Assembly: GCA_963555985.3 (NCBI GenBank)
Contig: OY820591.1
Coordinates: forward strand, 1,408,001-1,472,000
Direction of reading: 5' to 3'
Length of the DNA: 64,000 nucleotides
Source of the DNA: Dehalococcoidia bacterium
GTDB lineage: Bacteria; Chloroflexota; Dehalococcoidia; Bin125
This document shows positions 9,213-60,102 of this stretch, one piece after another (position 1 is the stretch's first letter; the number at the start of each line of letters is the position of its first letter). The notes under the pieces were generated by a model, which saw only the letters and a program-made list of their open reading frames with translations, did not search any database and had not been told where the DNA came from. Position numbers and translations under genes: made by a program.

Positions 9213-12074
9213 CTACCGATCATCACCCGAGCGCTCTCGATTGAGGGCGAGCAGGCGGCCCAAAATTTCGTCGTCCGAAAGATCGATCGGCCACCCATAA
9301 GCCGCGAACACCGCCGCGTCCAATGCCTCGTGCGCACCGTCGAGCCAGTCCGGCCGGCGATTGTACAAGTCGGTCATCGTCCGGTCTTGCAGGATCACCG
9401 GGTTGACATTCGCCGGGTTGAGTCGATCTTCGCGGCGTCGATTCAACTCGACCGCAGCCCTCGAGATTGCCACATAATGCTGTTGCTGCTCGTGGCTGAG
9501 GTCCGTGTCGGCCATATTCAGCGGCCACGGAAATGGAAACGTGTTGAAGCACAGGGTGTGGTTGTACCGCGGATCATTGCCAACGCCCAGTCGAGAGCCT
9601 AACGCCAGCGCCCACGTCTCATGGATGCGTGAGTGAAGGACTCCGAACACATAGTCGTCTTCTTTCGCGATTCCCACAACAGATTTGTCGATGCGGACCT
9701 GACCCTCCAACCAGACGAAGTTTCTGTACTTCGAGGTCAGGGATGTGGCCAACCAACGGCTTAGTGGCCTAGTTGCTTCTGTTAGCCCCTTGGCTGTCGA
9801 CTCGTGTCTCCACCAATCTTCGCGTAGTCGCTTGGTTGGGTGACGCTCGCGAGTCGGAAGGACATGCTCCTTCACGTACTCGTATGGAGAATCGTAAAGC
9901 GCTGCCTCCTGCCTCGATAAATCGCTCCCGAAGTCAATGATGTGGCGTCCACTAGAGCGGCCCGTTAGATCAGCCCCCGCGAAGAAAGGGAACACAACGT
10001 CGCTGTTCGGGCGTCCATTGGGGTTCCCAGGCTCGTCCAGCATCAACTGTGCTTCTGCAAATGGCACATCGAATCTGCCGGTCCGCTGACCACCGACGAA
10101 CGCGACTCCGCTGTTTTCGGTCAGTGGCACTGCGTCAACGACTCGTGGCCCCGATGACAGATCGGAGTGAATCTGAGTGACGCTTCGGCCATTCAGACGA
10201 CGGTCGGTCTCACTGCCATCGTCCTGCCCGATGATCGAAATGCGCACTGCTGCACCGTCATTGAGCCACTCTTCGTTTGGGTATGCAAAGAATATTGCCC
10301 CAGTGTCAGCGATTCTCTCGAGTACCGGACGGCTATATGACCTCCGGATTGTCTCGGTTGCCAGAAGCCCTGCCCGTTTGCTTCTACCGAGCTCAATCTG
10401 ACGCCGAGCCATCTCATGCCAGTAGACGCACAGATCAACGCGCCCATCAAATATATCGGCGTACGCAGCCCGCATTCGATCGACGGATCGTGGTTCGAGA
10501 GCCTTCATTTCCTTCGAACCGAGAAACGGCGGATTGCCGACGATGAATTCCGCCGGAGGCCATTCGGCTGGTTGACCCTCTTTAGTCAAGATCGCGTCGC
10601 GACATTCGATCTGGTCAATACGACCGAGAATCGGTTCGCGTGTAGGGTCCAATCCGTGTTCGTGATTCCACTGGAGGTGGCCAATCCAGAGCGACATCCG
10701 CGTGAGGTCGACAGCGAACTCGTTCTTGTCGATGCCGAGCAGGTTGTGCGGACCGATCCGTCGTTGCCGCGGACTGGGATCGACAGTGACTGCCCAATCG
10801 ATAAATTCCTGTTCGAGGTCCTTGAGCGCACGTAGAGCGATGTAGAGGAAGTTGCCGGAGCCGCAAGCAGGATCGAGGACGTGAACTTGGCTCAGACGCT
10901 CGTGAAATGCGCGGATCAGAGCCTTGGGTGAGCCGGGTGGAGGCTCATCCTCAAGATCGAGATGTCCGTTCACCGCGTAGTCCGCTGGCGGCTCGCCCAC
11001 GGCCGAATCGCTGGTCAGGTTCGCCCTGAGAGTAGCGAACTCAGTCCTCAGCGGGTGGAGTACCACCGGGTCCAGCACGCGCATGATGTTGTCCGGATCG
11101 GTGTAGTACGCGCCAAGTGGGGTGCGACTCTCGGGATCAAGTCCACGCTCGAACAACGTGCCGAAGATCGCCGGATCGATCCGCGACCAATTCAGTTCCG
11201 ACGTCTCCAACAGGATTTGCGCCAGGTCTTCGGTCAGCGGGAGCGTCTCCTGACTGGCCGTTGACTCGTCGAATAATCCGCCGTTGAACCAACGGATGTA
11301 ATACGCCCCAAAGGTTCGTTTGCTCTCGCTAGACATCGCTTGGAAGAGCTGCCGGAAGACCTCGTCGGAATCTTCCGCTGAGTACGCGAGGTTGTCGAAG
11401 ATGTCGCTGATCGGCTCCTGCCTGTTGCCTCGCCGGTTGCGGAACAGGCCGATGCTCTCGGCGAACATGCAAAAGACGATGCGGTTGAGGAATCTGGCAA
11501 CTACGGCTGAGTCGTGGTCTTCGGCGCGCAAGGCCTCTGCGACTTCGCCGAACTTGGCTGCCGCCGTCTCGGTGATGTAGCGCGGGTCGTTGTTAGGGTG
11601 CAACGCGTCGGGATCGCGGAAGACGTCGCGCAGAATTTTCGTGTAGTGAGACGGATTCTTCGACAGGTCCTTGAGTTCAAACCGAATCACTCGCGGGTCG
11701 GTGTTGGTGAAATTCGTGTGTATCTCGAAGCGATTCATGTCACAGACGACGAGCAGCGGAGGATTGCCTAGCCCCTCGCGGTATCCGAGCAGTTGCTCAT
11801 AGGCAGCTGTCAGGTTCTTGTTCTTGCCCTTGTACTCCCAGCCAAAACAACCTTGTTTGCGCACATCAGCCTGGCCTATCGACCCATCGGACCGCTTAAC
11901 GCCTTTCTCGAAGGCGTAGCTGACGCCCTCGGGGTCAGCATCGATCGGGTTTTCGACACCGAGCATGGCGCACAGGTCGATGAAGTGGGATTGCGCCGCC
12001 TGTGTTTCGCTGGCGGAGACCTTTCGCCATTTGGCGACGAATTCGTCCACTCTGAGTGTTGCTTCGGGCACCAT
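9213..12074 (-). CDS. MmeI/YeeA-like Type IIG/IIL restriction-modification fusion (nuclease, m6A methyltransferase, target recognition domain)
   Basis: N-terminal ADV...WEYKG PD-(D/E)XK-like motif, FNGGLF, IFGTLFE, GAYYT, motif I LDPACGSGNFL, motif IV IVGNPPFLG, C-terminal LDAAVFAAYGW. Confidence 0.9.
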   Translation of the reverse strand: MVPEATLRVDEFVAKWRKVSASETQAAQSHFIDLCAMLGVENPIDADPEGVSYAFEKGVKRSDGSIGQADVRKQGCFGWEYKGKNKNLTAAYEQLLGYREGLGNPPLLVVCDMNRFEIHTNFTNTDPRVIRFELKDLSKNPSHYTKILRDVFRDPDALHPNNDPRYITETAAAKFGEVAEALRAEDHDSAVVARFLNRIVFCMFAESIGLFRNRRGNRQEPISDIFDNLAYSAEDSDEVFRQLFQAMSSESKRTFGAYYIRWFNGGLFDESTASQETLPLTEDLAQILLETSELNWSRIDPAIFGTLFERGLDPESRTPLGAYYTDPDNIMRVLDPVVLHPLRTEFATLRANLTSDSAVGEPPADYAVNGHLDLEDEPPPGSPKALIRAFHERLSQVHVLDPACGSGNFLYIALRALKDLEQEFIDWAVTVDPSPRQRRIGPHNLLGIDKNEFAVDLTRMSLWIGHLQWNHEHGLDPTREPILGRIDQIECRDAILTKEGQPAEWPPAEFIVGNPPFLGSKEMKALEPRSVDRMRAAYADIFDGRVDLCVYWHEMARRQIELGRSKRAGLLATETIRRSYSRPVLERIADTGAIFFAYPNEEWLNDGAAVRISIIGQDDGSETDRRLNGRSVTQIHSDLSSGPRVVDAVPLTENSGVAFVGGQRTGRFDVPFAEAQLMLDEPGNPNGRPNSDVVFPFFAGADLTGRSSGRHIIDFGSDLSRQEAALYDSPYEYVKEHVLPTRERHPTKRLREDWWRHESTAKGLTEATRPLSRWLATSLTSKYRNFVWLEGQVRIDKSVVGIAKEDDYVFGVLHSRIHETWALALGSRLGVGNDPRYNHTLCFNTFPFPWPLNMADTDLSHEQQQHYVAISRAAVELNRRREDRLNPANVNPVILQDRTMTDLYNRRPDWLDGAHEALDAAVFAAYGWPIDLSDDEILGRLLALNRERSGDDR

Positions 12075-12080
12075 GATGCT

Positions 12081-13568
12081 TCACTCCGACAGCGCCGACT
12101 CCAACAACTCCGACGCCTGCTTCGGGTTCGCCTGACCCCGACTGTGGCGCATCACCTGACCAACCAAGAACTTCAGCGCCGCCGCCTTCCCGTTCCGGTA
12201 GTCCTCCACCGCGCCCTGATTCTCGGCCAGCACCTGCTCGATGATCGGCGTCAGCGCGTCCTCCCCGCTGATCTGCGACAGACCCTCGGCCTTCACGATC
12301 TTGGCTGGATCGTCTCCGCTTTCATACATCTTCTCAAAGACGGTCTTGGCCTGGGTCTTGCTGATGTCGCCCCGCTCGATCAGCTGCACCATCGCCGCCA
12401 GTTGCTTCGGTTTGACCTTGATCTCCTCAAAGCTCTGGTGCTGATTGGGGCGGTTCATCAGCCGCGTCAGTTCACCCACCATCCAGTTGGCGACCTCTTT
12501 CGGCAGGTGCGCGGGCATCGCCTCGCCCAGCGCCGCGACCGTTGCCTCGTACCAGCTGGCCGGCGTTGGCTCTTCGGTCAGCAGCCCACTCTCGAACGGC
12601 GTCAGACCGTAGTCGCGCTCGAAGCGGGCGCGGCGCTCCGCCGGCAGCTCCGGCAAGCCTGCGCGGATTGCTTCGACCGTCTCGCTGCTGGTCTGGAGCG
12701 GCGGCAGGTCCGGCTCGGGGAAGTAGCGATAGTCGTGCGCCTCTTCCTTGGAGCGCTGCGAGAGCGTGACTTCGTTCGCCTCGTCCCAGCCGCGCGTTTC
12801 TTGCGGGATCGCGCCGCCGCTGTTGAGCACTTCGGTCTGGCGCGCGATCTCGTGATGCAGCGCGTTGTAGACGCCCCGGAACGAGTTCATGTTCTTGATC
12901 TCGACCTTGGCCCCGAACTCCTCCTGTCCGACCGGACGCAGCGAGATGTTCGCGTCGCAGCGGAACGAACCCTTCTCCATATCGGCGGTCGAGACGCCGA
13001 GGTAGCGCAGAATCTGGCGCAGCTGCACGAGGTAGGTGCGCGCCTCTTCGGGCGAGCGCATGTCCGGCTCGGAGACGATCTCCATCAGCGGCACGCCGGA
13101 GCGGTTGACGTCGACGAGCGAGAAGCGCTCGCCCGCCTCGCTCTCGCGGTGCAGCAGACGGGCGGTGTCCTCCTCCAGGTGAACGCGCGTGATCCCGATC
13201 CGCCGTTGTCCCAGCTCCTCGGTCTCCACATCCATCCAACCGCCTTCCGAGAGCGGCATGTCGTACTGCGAGATCTGGTAGCCCTTCATCAGGTCGGGAT
13301 AGGGATAGTTCTTGCGGTCAAACTTCGACAGTTCCGGGATCGTCATGTTGAGCGCGAGCGCGGTGCGGATCGTCCACTCCACGGCGGTGCGGTTGATCAC
13401 GGGCAGCGTGCCCGGCATCCCCAGACAGAGCGGACAGACGTAGGTGTTGGGTTCGGCGTCGGCGTAATCGGCTGGGCAGCGGCAAAACATTTTGCTCGCC
13501 GTGCGCAACTGGCAGTGGACTTCGAGTCCAATCACGGGTTCGTAGGCGGTAGCGGTGGAGGTGGTCAT
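12081..13568 (-). CDS. gatB: Asp-tRNA(Asn)/Glu-tRNA(Gln) amidotransferase subunit B
   Basis: [58 protein letters not shown]. Confidence 0.97.
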
Positions 13569-13628: not shown

Positions 13629-13812
13629 GTCACTCCCGCGAGCACGCTGTCATTCCTGAGAAGGCGGGGGAATCTCGAACCACCAACCTCCAACGACACC
13701 GCCCCAAAAGCACTCCCCATCTCCACCACTCCCCAGTTCCCCGCGAACGCGGGGACCCGCTCCTCTCTCCCCCCGTTTGCGGGGGGAGATGTCACAAAGT
13801 GACAGAGGGGGG
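13629..13812. repeat. Cluster of three different REP-like palindromes
   Basis: GTCATTCC..GGAATCTC (13649-13676); TCCCCGCG-AA-CGCGGGGA (13738-13755); TCTCCCCCCG-TTTG-CGGGGGGAGA plus TGTCAC-AAA-GTGACA (13766-13804). Confidence 0.75.
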
Positions 13813-13847
13813 TCCCCACCCATCACTCAAATCAGCTACCCTGACAC

Positions 13848-13861
13848 AGAACACCAGTACT
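13848..13861. promoter_or_regulatory. Putative LexA (SOS) box
   Basis: AGAAC-ACCA-GTACT, one mismatch to AGAAC-N4-GTTCT. Confidence 0.5.
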
Positions 13862-14150
13862 TGCACTAAGAGAGTGCCGATGCCCAAGCCTCCCAACTGT
13901 CCAACACGCCCGCAAGCGCTCCGGCTACACGCGAACAAGTGCCCGAACCCATCCGGATTTGTCAAGAGAAATCTGGAGATTTCCGAATGCGCAAAATCAC
14001 AATTCCCTGTCCAGGACGGCAAAATCGATCACCACTCGCCAAAATTTCCTCCGCTGAATTCGAACATAACGATCAAACGCTCGATCTCGAACACCCCGCA
14101 CAACACGCGACAAGACCGCTCCATTTCGTCCCAGATATCGCCCAGGCCCG

Positions 14151-14203
14151 AACGGAATGAAACAAAATGAAACAAAATGAAACAAGGTGAAACAGAATCG
14201 AAC
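14151..14203 (+). repeat. 10-bp-period tandem direct repeat
   Basis: AACGGAATGA AACAAAATGA AACAAAATGA AACAAGGTGA AACAGAATCG. Confidence 0.85.
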
Positions 14204-14365
14204 GCCATTCACGCGAATTCCCCGTCCATAGCGGCGCATTCACTTCCTCCGCCCAGAAATTCCCTCTCGCCCGAACAGTCCAACCGGGCGCGGCAGGAGG
14301 GGCTGTTAGTCTGCGGGCGTGTTCTTGCGCCGTCCGCATACGGCGTCTGAGGGTATGTGCGCTCA

Positions 14366-15205
14366 ATGACCACCACGGTATTTCCGTCTCACGAACGAAT
14401 CCGCAGCCAGGCCGCGTCCGCTCACCCCCTGCGCCTGCTGCATACCTCGGATGTGCATCTGGGGGCCTACACCTCCAACCCCTTCAAGCTGCGGCCCGAC
14501 GGCGGCGAGGAACTTGAGCCGGCGCTCAAGGCGTTCCAGCACGTGCTCGATCTGGGGCGCGAGGCAGACGTGGATGTCGTGATCATCGCAGGCGACTTCT
14601 TTGACCACGTGCGCGTCAAGCGACCGTATGTCGAGGCGACCTGTCAGCTGATGGAGGCCGTGGAGCGTCCGGTCGTGATTCTGCCCGGCAACCACGATCC
14701 GCACATGCCGGAGGGCATCTATCAAAAGTTCGCCGATGCATTCCCCGCCAACGTTCACGTGATCTCGTCCGCAGAGGGCGAGTTGGTGGTGCTGGATGAA
14801 GTTGGCGTCCAGGTCTGGGGCCAGGCCCACGAGAGCTACAACGACTTCCGCCCGGCCTCGGCCCGGCCTGCTTGGATTGCGCACGGCGGTCGCCACTGGT
14901 GGCGGATCGCGATGGCGCACGGCTACTACGTGGGCACGGGTGAGTCGCGCTACTCCTACCAGATGACGGCGGACGAGATTCAGGCGCTCGACGCCGACTA
15001 CGTGGCGCTGGGACACATCGATGTGCACGAAGGCGTCGGCGACGGTTCGATACCCGCCTACTACCCTGGCGCGCCGCGTCACTCAGGCGGCGCGACGATC
15101 GTGGAATTCTCCGCAGAGAGCGTCACCGTGCGACACGAATTGCACGAAGGCGCGGGCATGGATCCGCAGACGGCCGTGCCAATGATGGCGGCGCGTCTGC
15201 ACTAG
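14366..15205 (+). CDS. Metallophosphoesterase, SbcD/Mre11-like
   Basis: LLHTSDVHLG, AGDFFD, LPGNHD, MAHG, YVALGHID. Confidence 0.85.
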   Translation: MTTTVFPSHERIRSQAASAHPLRLLHTSDVHLGAYTSNPFKLRPDGGEELEPALKAFQHVLDLGREADVDVVIIAGDFFDHVRVKRPYVEATCQLMEAVERPVVILPGNHDPHMPEGIYQKFADAFPANVHVISSAEGELVVLDEVGVQVWGQAHESYNDFRPASARPAWIAHGGRHWWRIAMAHGYYVGTGESRYSYQMTADEIQALDADYVALGHIDVHEGVGDGSIPAYYPGAPRHSGGATIVEFSAESVTVRHELHEGAGMDPQTAVPMMAARLH

Positions 15206-39541: not shown

Positions 39542-39999
39542 TCGGCACGTTCTGACTGGCGTGAGGCGCGCTCCTGGAGCATCGGCACCAGTGCATCAAG
39601 GGCAGCAAGGTAGCCGCGCCAGCCGAGGCCGGCGACGACGCCGTCCATGACCGGGGCGGTCACGAGGTTGTGCCGAAACGACTCGCGGGCGTGGACGTTT
39701 GAGAGATGCACTTCCATTTTGCCGCCGGGAAACGCTTCAAGGGCGTCGCGCAGCGAATATCCGTAGTGGGAGAGCGCGCCCGGGTTGATGATCAGGCCTT
39801 CGGCTGAGCGCTCCTGCTGGATGAAGTCGATGATCGCCCCTTCGTGGTTCGATTGGTACGGGCGGATCGTCACACCCCATTCCTCGGCGCGCTTGCGCAC
39901 GAGCTCTTCGATCTCGGCGAGTGTCTGCGAACCGTAGATTTCGGGTTGGCGCTGACCGAGAATGTTGAGGTTTGGGCCAGCGATCAGCAGGACCTTCAT
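39538..39999 (-). CDS. aroQ: Type II 3-dehydroquinate dehydratase
   Basis: GPNLNILGQRQPEIYG, QSNHEGAIID, INPGALSH, EVHLSNVHARE. Confidence 0.96.
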   Translation of the reverse strand: MKVLLIAGPNLNILGQRQPEIYGSQTLAEIEELVRKRAEEWGVTIRPYQSNHEGAIIDFIQQERSAEGLIINPGALSHYGYSLRDALEAFPGGKMEVHLSNVHARESFRHNLVTAPVMDGVVAGLGWRGYLAALDALVPMLQERASRQSERAE

Positions 40000-41000
40000 G
40001 GGGAATGCTCAGCTCGCGTCGGGGGTAGCGTCTGTTTGCTCAGGTGCATCTCGTCGGATTCGGAGCGGCGCTCGCGCAGCAGGTCTGCGATGCCGTCAAG
40101 CGCGTGATCAATGGTTTCGCGGCGTGCGGCATCGCTCACATGAGTGTAGATCTGCGTCGTGCTGACGCTGGCGTGACCCAGTAATTCCTGCACCACGCGC
40201 AGGTCCGCGCCTCCATCGATCATATGCGTGGCGAACGAGTGTCGCAACAGATGCGGGTGTACCGAAGCGGGCAGTCCGGCTTGCGCGGCGTAGCGCCGAA
40301 TGCCGAGTTGCACGGCGCGGGCCGAGAGCCGCCCGCCGAATCGATTGAGCCAGAGCCAGTCTTTCGATTGATCCGATACGAGCACGGGCCGGCCATCCAG
40401 CAGGTACTGTCGTAGCCGCCGCTCTGCCGGCTCTCCGAGCAGCGCGACCCGCTCTTTACCTCCCTTGCCGCGCACGATGAAGCCGTTTGCGTCGCGGTCG
40501 TAGTCGCCAAGCCGCATGTCGATTAGCTCGCTGATGCGCAGTCCTGCTCCGTAGAGGACTTCCAGAAGTGCGCCGTCTCTGAGCCCGGAGGGCGAGCGCG
40601 CATCCGGAGCCTGGAGGAGCGCATCGATCTGCTCTTCGCTCAGATATGCAGGTAGGTGCGCAGTCGCTTGCGGAATTGCGGCGAGGCTGAGCGGATCGGA
40701 ATCGAGGTTGCCTGCTTGGGTGAGCTGGCGCGTGAATGACTTAAGCGTTGACGCTCGCCGCCGGATGGAGCCGTCGGCCATGCCTGAAGTGCGCAGTTCG
40801 GCGAGGTAGGCGCGGTAATCGGCGCGGGTGAGGTCTGGGAGCGAGGTATCTTGTTGGGCGAGCCAGCGCAGGAAGTGGCGGATGTCGTTGCGGTAGTTGC
40901 GGACGGTGTGCGGCGACAGCCCGCGTCCATCGCGGAGGCGGGTGAGATAGCGCTCGAGCGATGCTTCGTCGGCTCGGTGGATATCGGCGAGGGCGTTCAC
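39996..41000 (-). CDS. xerC: Tyrosine recombinase, XerC/XerD family
   Basis: LSPHTVRNY, GLRISEL, GKGGKER, HPHLLRHSFATH, LLGHASVSTTQIYTHV; complete catalytic set; dprA-topA-xer synteny. Confidence 0.88.
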   Translation of the reverse strand: MNALADIHRADEASLERYLTRLRDGRGLSPHTVRNYRNDIRHFLRWLAQQDTSLPDLTRADYRAYLAELRTSGMADGSIRRRASTLKSFTRQLTQAGNLDSDPLSLAAIPQATAHLPAYLSEEQIDALLQAPDARSPSGLRDGALLEVLYGAGLRISELIDMRLGDYDRDANGFIVRGKGGKERVALLGEPAERRLRQYLLDGRPVLVSDQSKDWLWLNRFGGRLSARAVQLGIRRYAAQAGLPASVHPHLLRHSFATHMIDGGADLRVVQELLGHASVSTTQIYTHVSDAARRETIDHALDGIADLLRERRSESDEMHLSKQTLPPTRAEHSP

Positions 41001-41194
41001 GGCAATGACTTCATGCGACTCCTGGCGGTTGTCAATTCCACTCTAGAGAGCATTCGGATCGAGGGGGACTTTGCGGGTACTTGGAGGAGGGAGTGTTCGA
41101 GGTAGCGCGGGTGTCCGGGTTGGAGCGTTGGAAGGAATTTTGGGTCCGGTGCAGCGAATTTGCCGCCGAGGTGGAGGAATTTGCAGGTGGGTAG

Positions 41195-41245
41195 TCCAGA
41201 TTTGTCCCGATTCGGCTGGATTCGGCTGGATTTTGAGGATGTTTT
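41195..41245 (-). repeat. 10-bp-period tandem direct repeat
   Basis: GATT at 41199, 41209, 41219, 41229; minus strand AAAATCCAGC CGAATCCAGC CGAATCGGGA CAAATCTGGA. Confidence 0.75.
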
Positions 41246-41347
41246 GGGCGGAATTGGGGTGTGAGTCCGGGTTTGTCTTGATTTGCTCTGGTGGTCACGG
41301 TGGGTTTCGTTGGTTGTGGTTCGGGTGTGGACTGAGATGATCATATA

Positions 41348-41361
41348 TGTACGGGCGTTCT
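41348..41361. promoter_or_regulatory. Putative LexA (SOS) box
   Basis: Minus strand AGAAC-GCCC-GTACA followed by TATATGAT (-10-like TATGAT). Confidence 0.5.
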
Positions 41362-41395
41362 GTGGTGCGCAGGATTGAGAGGAGTGTTGTGGAGG

Positions 41396-43942
41396 TCACG
41401 GTTTGGTTGGAGAGCGGCGGCTTGCGGTGCGGCGAGCGCGACGGGTTCGACGGGGGGCCTTCGGCTCGGCGAGTAGTGCGAGGGCGCGGTCGAGGCCGAT
41501 CGTTTCGAGGTCGTCCTCGTCCTTCAGGTTTCGCCGTTCGTCGCCGGATTGCACGTAGGGGCCCCAGCGGCCCGGTCTGACGACGACTTCCTCGTTTGTG
41601 TCTGGGTGTCGGCCCAGGCTTTTGGGCCAACGGAGCCATTCGATCGCGTCTTCGAGCGTGACGTCTTCCAGTTCCATGGATTTCGGTACGGAAGCGCGTC
41701 GCGGTTTGGGGGCTTTGCGGCTGCGGGGGGACTCTCCCACTTGGACGAACGGCCCGAAGCGGCCGTTGAGCAGCCAGACGTCATCGTCGTAGTCGGGATG
41801 GCGGCCGAGCTTTCGCGGTAGTTCCTGTGCGCTGTCGAGCAGCTCGGCGGCGTGACTCAGGGTCAGCTCGGCCGGCGCGAGATCGGGCGTGAGGGGGGCA
41901 GTTCGCGCATTCTCACCGGCGCCCCGGCGGAGGAACGAGGAGCCGCTGCGGACGCGCACCTGGATATCGTTTGGGCCGACGTGATCGTCGCCGTTCGGGG
42001 CTAGTCGCAAGCCGTCCTCGGTGAGATCGAGCGCCCAGAAGGGGATCGTTGAGATCTTCTCCGCCACGCGCGTTTTCAAGCCTTCCGAGTCGTCTGCTCC
42101 GAAGTAGAAGTCGCGCAGGTGGGCTTCGGCGTCCGACTCGCCGCGCGCGATCTGGTCGAGGCGGTCTTCCATGTCGGCGGTGAACTCCGCATTGACGAGG
42201 TCGGCGAAGTGCTGGGTGAGCAAGTCGGTGACGGCGAAGCCGAGGAAGGTTGGGATGAGCATGCGTCCTCGGCGGTTGACGTACTCGCGCGCGATCAGGG
42301 TTGCGATGATCGAGGCATAGGTGCTGGGACGGCCGAGTCCGTCTTCCTCCAATTTGCGCACGAGGGAGGCTTCGGTGAAGCGAGGCGGCGGTTGGGACTC
42401 ACTACCCGTCGGGTTGAACTCCTGAAGGGTCGCCAGCTCGCCTTCGCGCAGCTCCGGGAGTAGGTTGGCGTCTCCTCCGCCTCTCGGTCGCAGGACGGCA
42501 TACCAGCCGTCAAAGAGCACGACCTGTCCGTTCGCGCTCATGACGGCCGGGTTGTCTGCGGGCCGGTCCGGGATGGGCGCTTCAATCGTGGCGCGGGTGC
42601 GTTCAACGCGCGCGTCGGCCATCTGGCAGGCGACAGTGCGCCGCCAGATGAGGTCATAGAGCTGGAAGTCATCCTCTTCGAGGAGCGAGCGGAGCGATGC
42701 GGGTGTACGGGTGATGTCGGTGGGGCGGATGGCTTCGTGCGCTTCTTGCGCGTTGCGAGTGCGCGTTCGGTAGGTGCGCCGCTCGTGATAGCTGGGACCG
42801 TACTCGTCGCGAATGAATGACGCGGCCTGCCCGAGCGCTTGATCGGAGAGGGTGACTGAGTCGGTGCGCATATAGGTGATCAGGCCGACTCGCTCGGCCC
42901 CGAGATCTACTCCCTGGTAGAGCCGCTGAGCGGCCGCCATCGTTCGCGCGGCGCCCATCCCCAGTCGATTCGACGCCGCCTGTTGCAGCGTGGAAGTGGT
43001 GAACGGAGGCCGAGGCCGGATGCTCGCTCGCTGCTTGGAGACGGAAGAGACTCGCCAGTTTGCTTGATTGAGGGCCGGCCGCAGCGCTTCGAGCGACTGC
43101 TCGGTCTCCCAGCGCTTTTCGGTCGCCCGAAGTTGTCCGGTGGCCGGATTGAAGTCTGCAGTTGCGCTTGCCAGTTCGGCTCCGCCGAGCGAGTGCAAGC
43201 GTGCGACCAGATCGCCGTGTTCCAGTCGGAAGCGGGCTTCCGCACCCCAATACTCGGCAGAGACGAACGCCATGCGCTCGCGTTCGCGCTCGACGAGGAA
43301 GCGGAGGGCGACGCTCTGCACGCGCCCGGCAGAGGTGCCTTGTCCCAGCTTGCGCCACAAGACCGGCGAGAGCGAGTAGCCGTAGAGCCGATCAAGGATG
43401 CGGCGCGACTCTTGCGCCTCCACGAGCGCCTGATCGATCTGGCGGGGCGATTGGAGCGCTGCCTGAATTGCCGCCGGCGTGATCTCGTGGAACACGATCC
43501 GTTCGTAGGGCACTTTTGGCTTGAGCACTTCGACGAGATGCCAGCCGATCGACTCGCCTTCACGATCTTCGTCGGTTGCAAGGAGGACGCGGTCGGCGTC
43601 TTTGAGTTCCTTGCGGAGGCGGGTGACGTGCTTCTTGGACTCGCTGGGGACGATGTAGTAGGGCTGGAAGCCGTGGTCGACGTCGACGGCGAAGTCGGCC
43701 CAGGGTTGGCCCTTGATTTTGGCCGGTCGCTCGGCGGCGCGGCGGGGGAGGTCGCGGATGTGGCCGAAACAGGCGCTGACGAAGTAATCGTCGTTCAGGA
43801 ATTGACCGATGGTGTCGGCCTTAGCGCCGGATTCGACGATGACGAGGGTCTTGCCGCCCTCCTGCGGAGCGGAGCGCGAACGCCGCGGCGTTGAGCGGCT
43901 TGTTCGTTTGGCCTTCTTGGACGGCGACTTAGCGTCGGGCAT
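41396..43942 (-). CDS. topA: DNA topoisomerase I (type IA) with C-terminal repeats and no zinc fingers
   Basis: LVIVES..KA, GHIRDL, ATDEDREGESI, SAGRVQS, GLITYMRTDS, QEAHEAIRPT, GLGRPSTYA. Confidence 0.96.
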   Translation of the reverse strand: MPDAKSPSKKAKRTSRSTPRRSRSAPQEGGKTLVIVESGAKADTIGQFLNDDYFVSACFGHIRDLPRRAAERPAKIKGQPWADFAVDVDHGFQPYYIVPSESKKHVTRLRKELKDADRVLLATDEDREGESIGWHLVEVLKPKVPYERIVFHEITPAAIQAALQSPRQIDQALVEAQESRRILDRLYGYSLSPVLWRKLGQGTSAGRVQSVALRFLVERERERMAFVSAEYWGAEARFRLEHGDLVARLHSLGGAELASATADFNPATGQLRATEKRWETEQSLEALRPALNQANWRVSSVSKQRASIRPRPPFTTSTLQQAASNRLGMGAARTMAAAQRLYQGVDLGAERVGLITYMRTDSVTLSDQALGQAASFIRDEYGPSYHERRTYRTRTRNAQEAHEAIRPTDITRTPASLRSLLEEDDFQLYDLIWRRTVACQMADARVERTRATIEAPIPDRPADNPAVMSANGQVVLFDGWYAVLRPRGGGDANLLPELREGELATLQEFNPTGSESQPPPRFTEASLVRKLEEDGLGRPSTYASIIATLIAREYVNRRGRMLIPTFLGFAVTDLLTQHFADLVNAEFTADMEDRLDQIARGESDAEAHLRDFYFGADDSEGLKTRVAEKISTIPFWALDLTEDGLRLAPNGDDHVGPNDIQVRVRSGSSFLRRGAGENARTAPLTPDLAPAELTLSHAAELLDSAQELPRKLGRHPDYDDDVWLLNGRFGPFVQVGESPRSRKAPKPRRASVPKSMELEDVTLEDAIEWLRWPKSLGRHPDTNEEVVVRPGRWGPYVQSGDERRNLKDEDDLETIGLDRALALLAEPKAPRRTRRARRTASRRSPTKP

Positions 43943-59679: not shown

Positions 59680-59820
59680 GTCCTCAGCCTCCCTGTCGCT
59701 CATGAGCGTCTGTGACCTTGTTCAGGTTAGGGCTTGTTCATATCTCCCGGTGGGGCACGGGAACTTTTGAGGGGAATTGGCGAATTTGCTGTTGTGAGCT
59801 GAGAGTTCGTTTGTGAGGTG

Positions 59821-59860
59821 ATCAGATTTGGTCAGGTTTGGTCAGATCTCGCTCGATTTG
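59821..59860 (-). repeat. 10-bp-period tandem direct repeat
   Basis: Minus strand CAAATCGAGC GAGATCTGAC CAAACCTGAC CAAATCTGAT. Confidence 0.75.
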
Positions 59861-60033
59861 CGGGGTGTTTTTGCGCGGTTTGCGTGGGTTGGTCAGGGGT
59901 GTTTGGGTTGTCGGCGTGGGGGTCATGTCGGTCTCGCTGGCTGGTCATTAGGGATCATTAGATCGAATAAGAGTGCTGCCTCGTTGATGTGGTGAGCGAG
60001 TGTGTTCGGGTGAACAGTCGGCGTCAACGCGGG

Positions 60034-60102
60034 GAGATTCCCGTGACAAGCGGGGGAATGACGGAGTGGGGATTGAGGCGTGCTCCCGCGTGAAGCGGGA
60101 GC
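60034..60102. repeat. Two REP-like palindromes
   Basis: 60034-60062 reads GTCATTCCCCCGCTTGTCACGGGAATCTC on the minus strand (same ends as 13649-13676); GCTCCCGC-GTGAA-GCGGGAGC at 60082-60102. Confidence 0.72.

Follow-up and report, generated by a model that had tools for sequence, protein, structure and literature searches.

Bacteria are held to copy their chromosome from a single origin. The locus described in this report recalls several systems in which DNA synthesis or DNA packaging starts elsewhere. In phage lambda, the origin is located within the initiator gene O, and its activation depends on transcription from the upstream promoter pR (PMC7466680). In Bartonella, run-off replication linked to a gene transfer agent, to be seen beside prophage escape replication, starts from a single bidirectional origin that has a helicase of its own and a capsid cluster at the same place (PMC2697382). 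For the inducible stable DNA replication of E. coli, the review passages that treat it report no sequence-specific origin (PMC7326373).

The elements that we describe, called array cassettes here, are built on an array of 10-bp units, often with a LexA-type promoter box before it and a tail of AATT-type words after it, and some carry a helix-turn-helix (HTH) gene. With lambda they share repeats inside the gene of a DNA-binding protein and an upstream promoter that is, by prediction, released by damage (PMC7466680). They differ in having 10-bp units instead of lambda iterons, in an HTH that has no sequence likeness to O, and in their number, about 100 dispersed chromosomal copies, most of them without a gene. 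Further, there is no AT-rich unwinding tract beside the arrays, where the tail consists of AATT words within C-rich spacers, and no helicase-loader gene accompanies the cassettes, whose neighbour genes vary. With the Bartonella system they share an extra phage-like start beside domesticated packaging functions (PMC2697382), but they form many candidate polar sites and have no helicase, and the portal (PF04860) and capsid (PF05065) were not found with these two models in a 96%-complete genome. The likeness to pac and the small terminase of SPP1/SF6 and P22 lies in about 100 bp of bendable, phased DNA in or beside an HTH gene (PMC4737164, PMC8575938), in polar action and in a terminase under SOS-type control; in contrast, the cassette HTH protein is no demonstrated small-terminase homolog, the cassette footprint lies upstream, and no prophage is present. 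SOS-linked, oriC-independent synthesis is the point of contact with inducible stable replication (PMC7326373), although the candidate sites here are, unlike those in E. coli, defined by sequence. Like REP/BIME elements (PMC3733652), the cassettes are dispersed, intergenic and non-coding, and one of them, copy A, carries REP-like hairpins; unlike REP/BIME-RAYT systems, they carry a regulated-type promoter and a phased array, and the genome yielded no Y1 HUH transposase or reverse transcriptase. Judged by their sequences, the cassettes thus appear to belong with neither the lambda-type origins, the small terminases nor the RAYT-REP systems, and their closest working parallels are Bartonella run-off replication and inducible stable replication. 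A literature search, with subscription papers and supplements outside its scope, returned no description of the family.

The window analysed is a 64-kb stretch of contig C1 (1,408,001-1,472,000) of a 3.33-Mb genome (65% GC, 96% complete; G000 below). Copy A lies between gatB and a calcineurin-like phosphoesterase gene (Table 1). This gap measures 849 bp in G000 and 136-156 bp in all five relatives of genus g7, and copy A is therefore an insert of about 0.7 kb, lineage-specific and non-coding. In two g8 relatives the same gap holds REP hairpins and nothing else; the adjacency of the two genes is kept at 15 of the 29 relative loci compared. The empty sites are too diverged for the junctions of copy A to be placed. 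Short-read contigs from three runs of one study (possibly the source sample itself) reproduce copy A without difference, so it is no assembly error. An MmeI-like restriction-modification gene (9213-12074) lies directly behind gatB. The phosphoesterase, the target of copy A's predicted promoter, has motifs that we take to be SbcD-like.

Table 1. Coordinates of copy A, its surroundings and related features (window positions, except where contig C1 is named)
Feature	Position	Strand	Remark
gatB	12081..13568	-	upstream neighbour of copy A
Degenerate GTCAT-type REP-like imperfect palindrome	13649..13676	+	separate repeat family stacked before the cassette
Small hairpin	13740..13753	+	remnant of a second REP-like unit
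REP2 double hairpin	13763..13812	+	about 150-265 genomic copies, by method; type that flanks two DUF559 nuclease genes
Predicted -10 element	13835..13842	+	position as in HTH-gene leaders
LexA-type box GAAC-N4-GTAC	13849..13860	+	just 3' of the predicted -10
ATG (13880) and 96-codon frame, pseudo-ORF	13880..14170	+	no Pfam match; frame not conserved
First phased module	13952..14060	+	four degenerate 10-bp units, then words at 21-bp steps
Main array	14144..14203	+	six 10-bp units, each ending GAAC or GAAAC
Tail	14215..14264	+	three AATT-type words at 21-bp steps (14216, 14237 (degenerate), 14258)
Resumed host sequence	14303..14356	+	conserved across the empty sites of five genus-g7 relatives
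Calcineurin-like phosphoesterase gene	14357..15205	+	downstream neighbour of copy A
Copy B	41130..41400	-	box 41360-41349, two arrays, AATT at 41181, 41160 and 41139; no REP
Copy C	59770..60062	-	REP-like palindrome 60062-60034, 10-bp array near 59850-59815, short tail
LexA-type boxes before five apparent genes (see text)	C1 1266062, 1285774, 1685785, 1036225, 2980423		

An earlier reading of the window, made from its sequence only, had named a palindrome, a LexA-like box, 10-bp units and AATT-type words in copy A, and all of them are present at their positions. The single palindrome that it recognised is genuine, but the REP2 double hairpin at 13763-13812 (about 150 matches) had escaped it. 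Short, tagged palindromes of many copies, by which REPs are known, were found at the hairpins 13649-13812 alone. They are separate repeats, and their membership of the unit, as had been supposed, is not supported, since no REP lies close to 56 of the 95 payload-less arrays. Against a profile of HTH-gene leaders, the leader of copy A scores 10.3 bits, whereas none of 100 shuffles exceeded -3.2. One HTH gene, at C1:37153-37830, resembles copy A's array and tail in its 3' part. The first phased module, with AATT/AAAT words at 14001, 14022 and 14043, is common to copy A and two paralogues. The periodicity of copy A by itself is not significant (p 0.078). An orthologous copy from another study (one contig, depth 5) has one array unit fewer and two +1 indels within the 96-codon frame; since this frame is not conserved, we regard it as a pseudo-ORF. 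A protein-coding copy A was rejected on the lack of a Pfam match, on the frame broken in the ortholog and on the single-base indels that dominate in copy B's subfamily. No part of the 64-kb window matched Rfam at gathering thresholds. From its retained parts, copy A appears to be a derivative of an HTH cassette in which promoter, start codon, array and tail are kept and the HTH is absent. The suggestion of eroded genes is partly right, as copy A retains leader, ATG and tail from HTH genes.

Copies A, B and C had been presented as the three largest intergenic gaps of the window, all A/C-rich on one strand and with their parts in the same order. The composition is as described (A+C 0.64, 0.69 and 0.68, against a genomic 250-bp mean of 0.49, sd 0.07). 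The ranking is about right, because the four other gaps that rank above B and C by our own gene calls are covered by long ORFs. The common order stands only in part, because copy B has no palindrome and copy C no box; in the latter, neither a match to the box pattern nor a leader of any family profile was found. Nor is the divergence of primary sequence complete: some 45 relatives share about 70% identity with copy B, and copy A has two relatives. Copy B points into a tyrosine recombinase gene (39996-41000, XerC-like) located behind topA. Its leader fits that of the terminase cassettes described below, and its array matches another HTH gene than copy A's. Empty orthologous sites, which the sequence-only reading had proposed to look for, were found for copy A in the g7 relatives and for copy B in G024. 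The topA-recombinase gap of G014 (C1 near 3,197,400; L136) contains both a REP and a 10-bp array, oriented the other way round from copy B, apparently an independent insertion at the same site.

Lag-10 arrays occur in 92 of the 941 intergenic regions of at least 150 bp, compared with a mean of 2.2 and a maximum of 5 in 20 dinucleotide shuffles. On C1, intergenic arrays number 91 at lag 10, 44 at lag 20 and at most 9 at any other lag from 4 to 25. A box GAAC-N4-GTHC lies up to 400 bp upstream of 30 of the 92 arrays (1.3 expected, maximum 4), a tail of at least two AATT(C/T) words lies downstream of 39 (3.1 expected, maximum 8), and box and tail occur together in 23. The box spacer is 4 in 31 of 92 arrays; spacers of 2, 3, 5 and 6 account for 2-4 each. 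The proposed dispersed family with box, array and tail therefore exceeds what shuffled sequence gives.

The helical phasing that had been suggested is also evident. Of 67 intervals between AATT words, 43 measure 21 bp; in the B cores, AA/TT/AT power is highest at a period of 10.5 bp, and the distance from ATG to array steps by 10 in the 45-copy B subfamily. Among 29 aligned B cores (the rows of the 45 that have both anchors), 26 of 34 indels are single bases, in agreement with the non-coding nature assigned to the family at the outset. The cassette unit is thus non-coding and phased like double-stranded DNA. A structured RNA was rejected, the cores folding no better than shuffles (z 0.84, -0.97 and 0.05).

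Some copies are old and inherited, since two arrays (C1 1172128 and 1397702) occupy orthologous sites in G000 and G018. Most sites are lineage-specific, the array being absent from 14 of 16 orthologous gaps in relatives. Near 3,314,260 on C1 of G018 (L103), a bare 10-bp array lies directly behind what we presume to be the RNase P RNA gene. Contigs C2-C11 of our genome are alternative haplotypes of C1 (95-99% identical), with cargo genes swapped in fixed slots; none of the seven differences listed between them and C1 is the presence or absence of an array. There is also a 1.07-kb insertion element in 10 near-identical copies (e.g. C1 128570-129586), one of them within an HTH-cassette tail.

The box motif shared by the cassettes overlaps the -10 of the recA promoter, and the genome has a lexA gene, at which no box stands out clearly. 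This GAAC-N4-GTWC-like promoter box fits a Chloroflexota-type LexA operator, which upholds the original identification of the box. A predicted -10 and box are conserved upstream of the repeats of HTH genes, making a candidate promoter that reads into the repeats. Boxes also stand before genes that, judged by their protein starts, resemble dnaX, comM, rarA, yebC and the gene of a photoproduct-lyase-like enzyme.

The HTH family numbers 21 genes in the genome, and its proteins consist of an N-terminal HTH, long helices and a disordered tail. It shares leader, array and tail with the cassettes, and the expectation that intact copies would be linked to an HTH gene was therefore sound. In 11 of the 19 HTH genes on C1, the 3' part reaches a lag-10 score of at least 20 (99th percentile of shuffled sequence, 19). 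The array pattern extends to related genomes. It was found in 6 of 41, namely in six of the eight that have the HTH family and in none of the 33 that do not; these co-occurrences span three related genera, and the genomes are not independent. The HTH protein has no catalytic domain and nothing initiator-like beyond a generic HTH, and among 14 picked hits no catalytic fusion or additional Pfam domain was found. A profile search with the family returned the same family and repeat-HTH proteins; one query of viral contigs and annotated phages returned no relatives.

A second kind of cassette carries a LexA box and a small terminase-like gene, in some copies joined by a large terminase gene, and mostly has no array. 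The large terminase is present in five copies in G000; its readable motifs, taken to be those of the ATPase and nuclease, suggest an intact enzyme. Terminase cassettes occupy 27 loci on C1 of G000 (e.g. L043-L047; in relatives, L141-L148). They are single-copy and G/T-rich in most relatives, and amplified, 3'-truncated and A/C-rich in G000 and G018.

Mobility had been proposed for these elements. Recent duplicates of HTH and terminase cassettes have a fixed 5' end at the leader and a variable 3' end, and lie among variable REP stacks; no inverted ends or target duplications were seen at their ends, so no defined mobility mechanism emerges. Copy A is MITE-like in being an internally deleted copy of a gene-bearing element. 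Retro- or HUH-type mobility was rejected, as neither PF00078 nor PF01797 (Y1 transposase) was found in the 96%-complete genome. The REP2 type flanks both DUF559 nuclease genes (L048, L049), and REP2 hairpins are inserted in frame within coding sequences of the HTH family (L037:366-1355) and of the terminase (L148:1351-2820).

The strand skew, which the earlier reading ascribed to the element, is regional and continues over kilobases of host genes. In those near arrays, four-fold sites are enriched in C and A on the strand of the element, in either gene orientation. Across the genome, the residual skew of 5-kb bins has an sd of 0.163 (0.019 expected), with no replichore-scale pattern. The ramp occupies 10-30 kb upstream of an element, with an upstream tail of 20-30 kb in the averaged profile, and drops within 6-10 kb on the downstream side, where the fall is placed 2-4 kb beyond the element; for HTH genes, terminase cassettes and box-bearing arrays, the end of the ramp is 3-5 kb downstream. 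Element orientation agrees with the sign of the local skew for 156 of 177 REP2 clusters; among arrays this is so for 84 of 105, among terminase cassettes for 25 of 27 and among HTH genes for 17 of 19. The step across each element was measured with its own payload masked and with 1000 circular shifts as the null. It amounts to 0.109 at HTH genes (15 of 19 positive, p 0.002), 0.116 at terminase cassettes (23 of 27) and 0.056 at payload-less arrays (64 of 95). Arrays with an intact box have a step of 0.099 (23 of 29), against 0.037 (41 of 66) for those without (one-sided p 0.03). Terminase cassettes mostly lack arrays yet show the step; the array is therefore not needed for it. At lone REP2 the step is 0.013 and not significant (35 of 76 positive, p 0.24), and at clusters of 2-3 REP units it is 0.072 (36 of 53).

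Four relatives show the same arrangement. The comparison took in 12 HTH genes with their flanks from G014, G018, G019 and G022 (for G022, the skew map covers about 0.67 Mb of 3.0 Mb). A C-shift precedes every one of the 12, with a mean of +0.23 that drops to +0.03 between 3 and 9 kb downstream, and 11 have a positive step. One ramp in G014, about 100 kb long, reaches its maximum at an HTH gene and vanishes within 5 kb. Thus, in G000 and four relatives, promoter-bearing cassettes and not lone REPs mark the edges of polar patches. At copy A, the silent sites of gatB are C-shifted on the element strand (+0.12, vs -0.03 in the G024 orthologue), and those of the phosphoesterase stand at -0.09 (vs -0.05 in G024). 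Genes upstream of copies B and C lie mostly at -0.1 to -0.34, vs +0.05 to +0.13 in G024. Each of the three copies is therefore shifted against G024 in the expected direction, the step of copy A itself being small. In genus g3, which has the terminase and no HTH family, local skew is very strong (loci L012, L218); sense C reaches 0.95 in gatB of G002, and raw skew is +0.27 to +0.30 at dnaA of G011.

The polar tract is anchored at the element, treats the two strands unequally and is strongest where the promoter is intact. The shift is mainly one of C vs G, and simple deamination is therefore insufficient to explain it. A symmetric resection footprint (G/T to the left of the element, A/C to the right) was rejected, since the observed pattern is the opposite, as was a sharp bidirectional origin exactly at the array, since the fall sits 2-4 kb downstream. 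Attempts to use dnaA as a control of direction failed. In G000, an HTH gene only 5.5 kb from dnaA confounds the flip there, the relatives contradict one another (G022 is flat, and the flip of G019 has the reverse sign), and in G008 the strand that would be leading by the position of dnaA is rich in C. The proposed direction of synthesis follows from the rule that leading strands are generally G-rich (PMC9836097).

Since a LexA-type promoter and helix-turn repeats meet at the edges of skew ramps, the cassettes are likely candidates for damage-switched, one-way start sites. We propose that they are SOS-inducible sites of polar DNA synthesis with the HTH proteins as putative binders and with copy A as a non-autonomous member, a reading to which we assign a probability of roughly 0.4. 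In this scheme, the SOS response would lift LexA from the cassette box, and transcription from the cassette promoter would run into the array. An HTH oligomer would bind one face of the helix and bend the DNA, and host replication or recombination proteins would then start a tract running back through the cassette into upstream host DNA. Unequal treatment of the strands would, over time, write the ramp of C/A vs G/T. A locally over-copied cassette might occasionally be pasted at a new site, frequently one with REP hairpins around it. Copies without a payload, A among them, would use HTH protein made elsewhere, in trans. The array cassettes are a real and undescribed family; the mechanism is plausible, but the case for it is indirect.

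An important question is whether the cassettes cause the patches or may be mere passengers of them. An unknown polar process, perhaps DUF559-type nicking at oriented REP clusters or old inversions, could make the patches, into which REPs, HTH genes, terminase cassettes and arrays would insert with the local polarity, acquiring the composition of the patch; the arrays would then serve the HTH protein in autoregulation or as structural sites and take no part in synthesis. Orientation of REP2 is indeed the best single predictor of local skew, explaining more of its variance (R2 0.355) than do arrays (0.157; both together, 0.419), yet it is the cassettes that show the step, not lone REP2, and of the 51 arrays that have no REP closer than 1.5 kb, 42 nevertheless agree with the skew, which peaks locally at them. 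G024, which has neither the HTH family nor the array pattern, has ramps and steps near REP clusters, a point in favour of passengers. So is the terminase cassette, which is G/T-rich and off the step where it is single-copy in relatives and A/C-rich in its amplified copies in G000. Comparison of orthologous regions cuts both ways. Collinear, un-inverted orthologues in G018 lack the shift (6 of 6 for HTH genes, 9 of 11 for arrays, p 0.014), and inversions were thus rejected as the sole cause of patches, although local inversions elsewhere may have contributed. With G024 as the reference, however, arrays show no significant lineage-specific shift (9 of 16, p 0.71), and a weak skew of the same sign persists at the empty sites of relatives. 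An insertion bias of this kind would leave unexplained both the phasing and the retention of the box in copies 30% diverged. We consider it somewhat unlikely that the cassettes are passengers only.

Another possibility is that the HTH protein is the DNA-recognition subunit missing from the LexA-box terminase, the phased DNA wrapping around an HTH ring in the manner of pac. The large subunit would cut, and repair of the one-ended break, whether within the cell itself or once a borrowed capsid had transferred the DNA, would prime polar synthesis. The large terminase occurs in 8 of 8 HTH-bearing genomes, and its small partner subunit has no HTH, although some HTH-free genomes also have the terminase and the two models for portal and capsid found neither. 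The leader of copy B fits that of the terminase cassettes, which are fixed at the 5' end and variable at the 3' end. Known systems offer a precedent for the geometry, in that the HTHs of a small terminase lie one helical turn apart on its ring (PMC4737164) and P22 pac lies inside terS and acts with polarity (PMC8575938). Homology searches weigh against such an identity. The HTH family and the small-subunit family are matched by hhalign with a probability of 0.03, Foldseek matches of the HTH protein to terminases have E values of 0.1 or worse, atlas leads stay below 0.9, and two small-terminase PHROGs are each matched by 2 of 17 HTH members, with matched stretches that, where given, cover no more than the HTH. 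This link to the terminase is, in our judgement, unlikely.

Could the cassettes instead be portable SOS promoters or LexA decoys, which put neighbours under damage control or soak up LexA, the array being a relic of tandem duplication? Cassettes contain 71 of the 146 high-scoring intergenic boxes, and 70 of 95 payload-less arrays aim at a co-oriented downstream gene, as A does at the phosphoesterase and B at the tyrosine recombinase. However, 66 of the 95 have no intact box, 14 of 16 orthologous gaps do without the array, and neither the phasing nor the upstream ramp would be explained; this account is quite improbable. It is a shade more improbable still that the transcript matters as a Rho-loading site or protein-binding RNA, for although it is predicted to be C-rich, G-poor and unstructured, as Rho utilisation sites are, with Rho present and promoter and start kept, the 21-bp and 10.5-bp phasing suits B-DNA, the bias extends kilobases upstream of the promoter and into antisense-oriented genes too, and Rho is also found in array-less genomes.

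Returning to the cassettes as SOS-inducible start sites, a further and more doubtful step would be to view the whole chromosome as colonised by about 100 selfish, SOS-fired mini-origins, which would have fired frequently enough in evolution to wipe out the skew between oriC and terminus and put patchwork ramps in its place, with coupling to a domesticated, capsid-less terminase a possibility. If this were true, the organism would have a sequence-defined, multi-origin bacterial chromosome, built on an HTH initiator and its phased site and including non-autonomous copies like A. The cassettes offer candidate sites, a candidate protein, a switch (LexA) and a predicted place and direction for extra synthesis, and they supply, for the first time, a candidate cause of the strong strand skew that is spread in patches through the genomes of this clade. 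They may also represent a route by which DNA elements without a transposase spread. Even if they prove to be passengers, they constitute an undescribed, helically phased element with an SOS box that is common to three genera.
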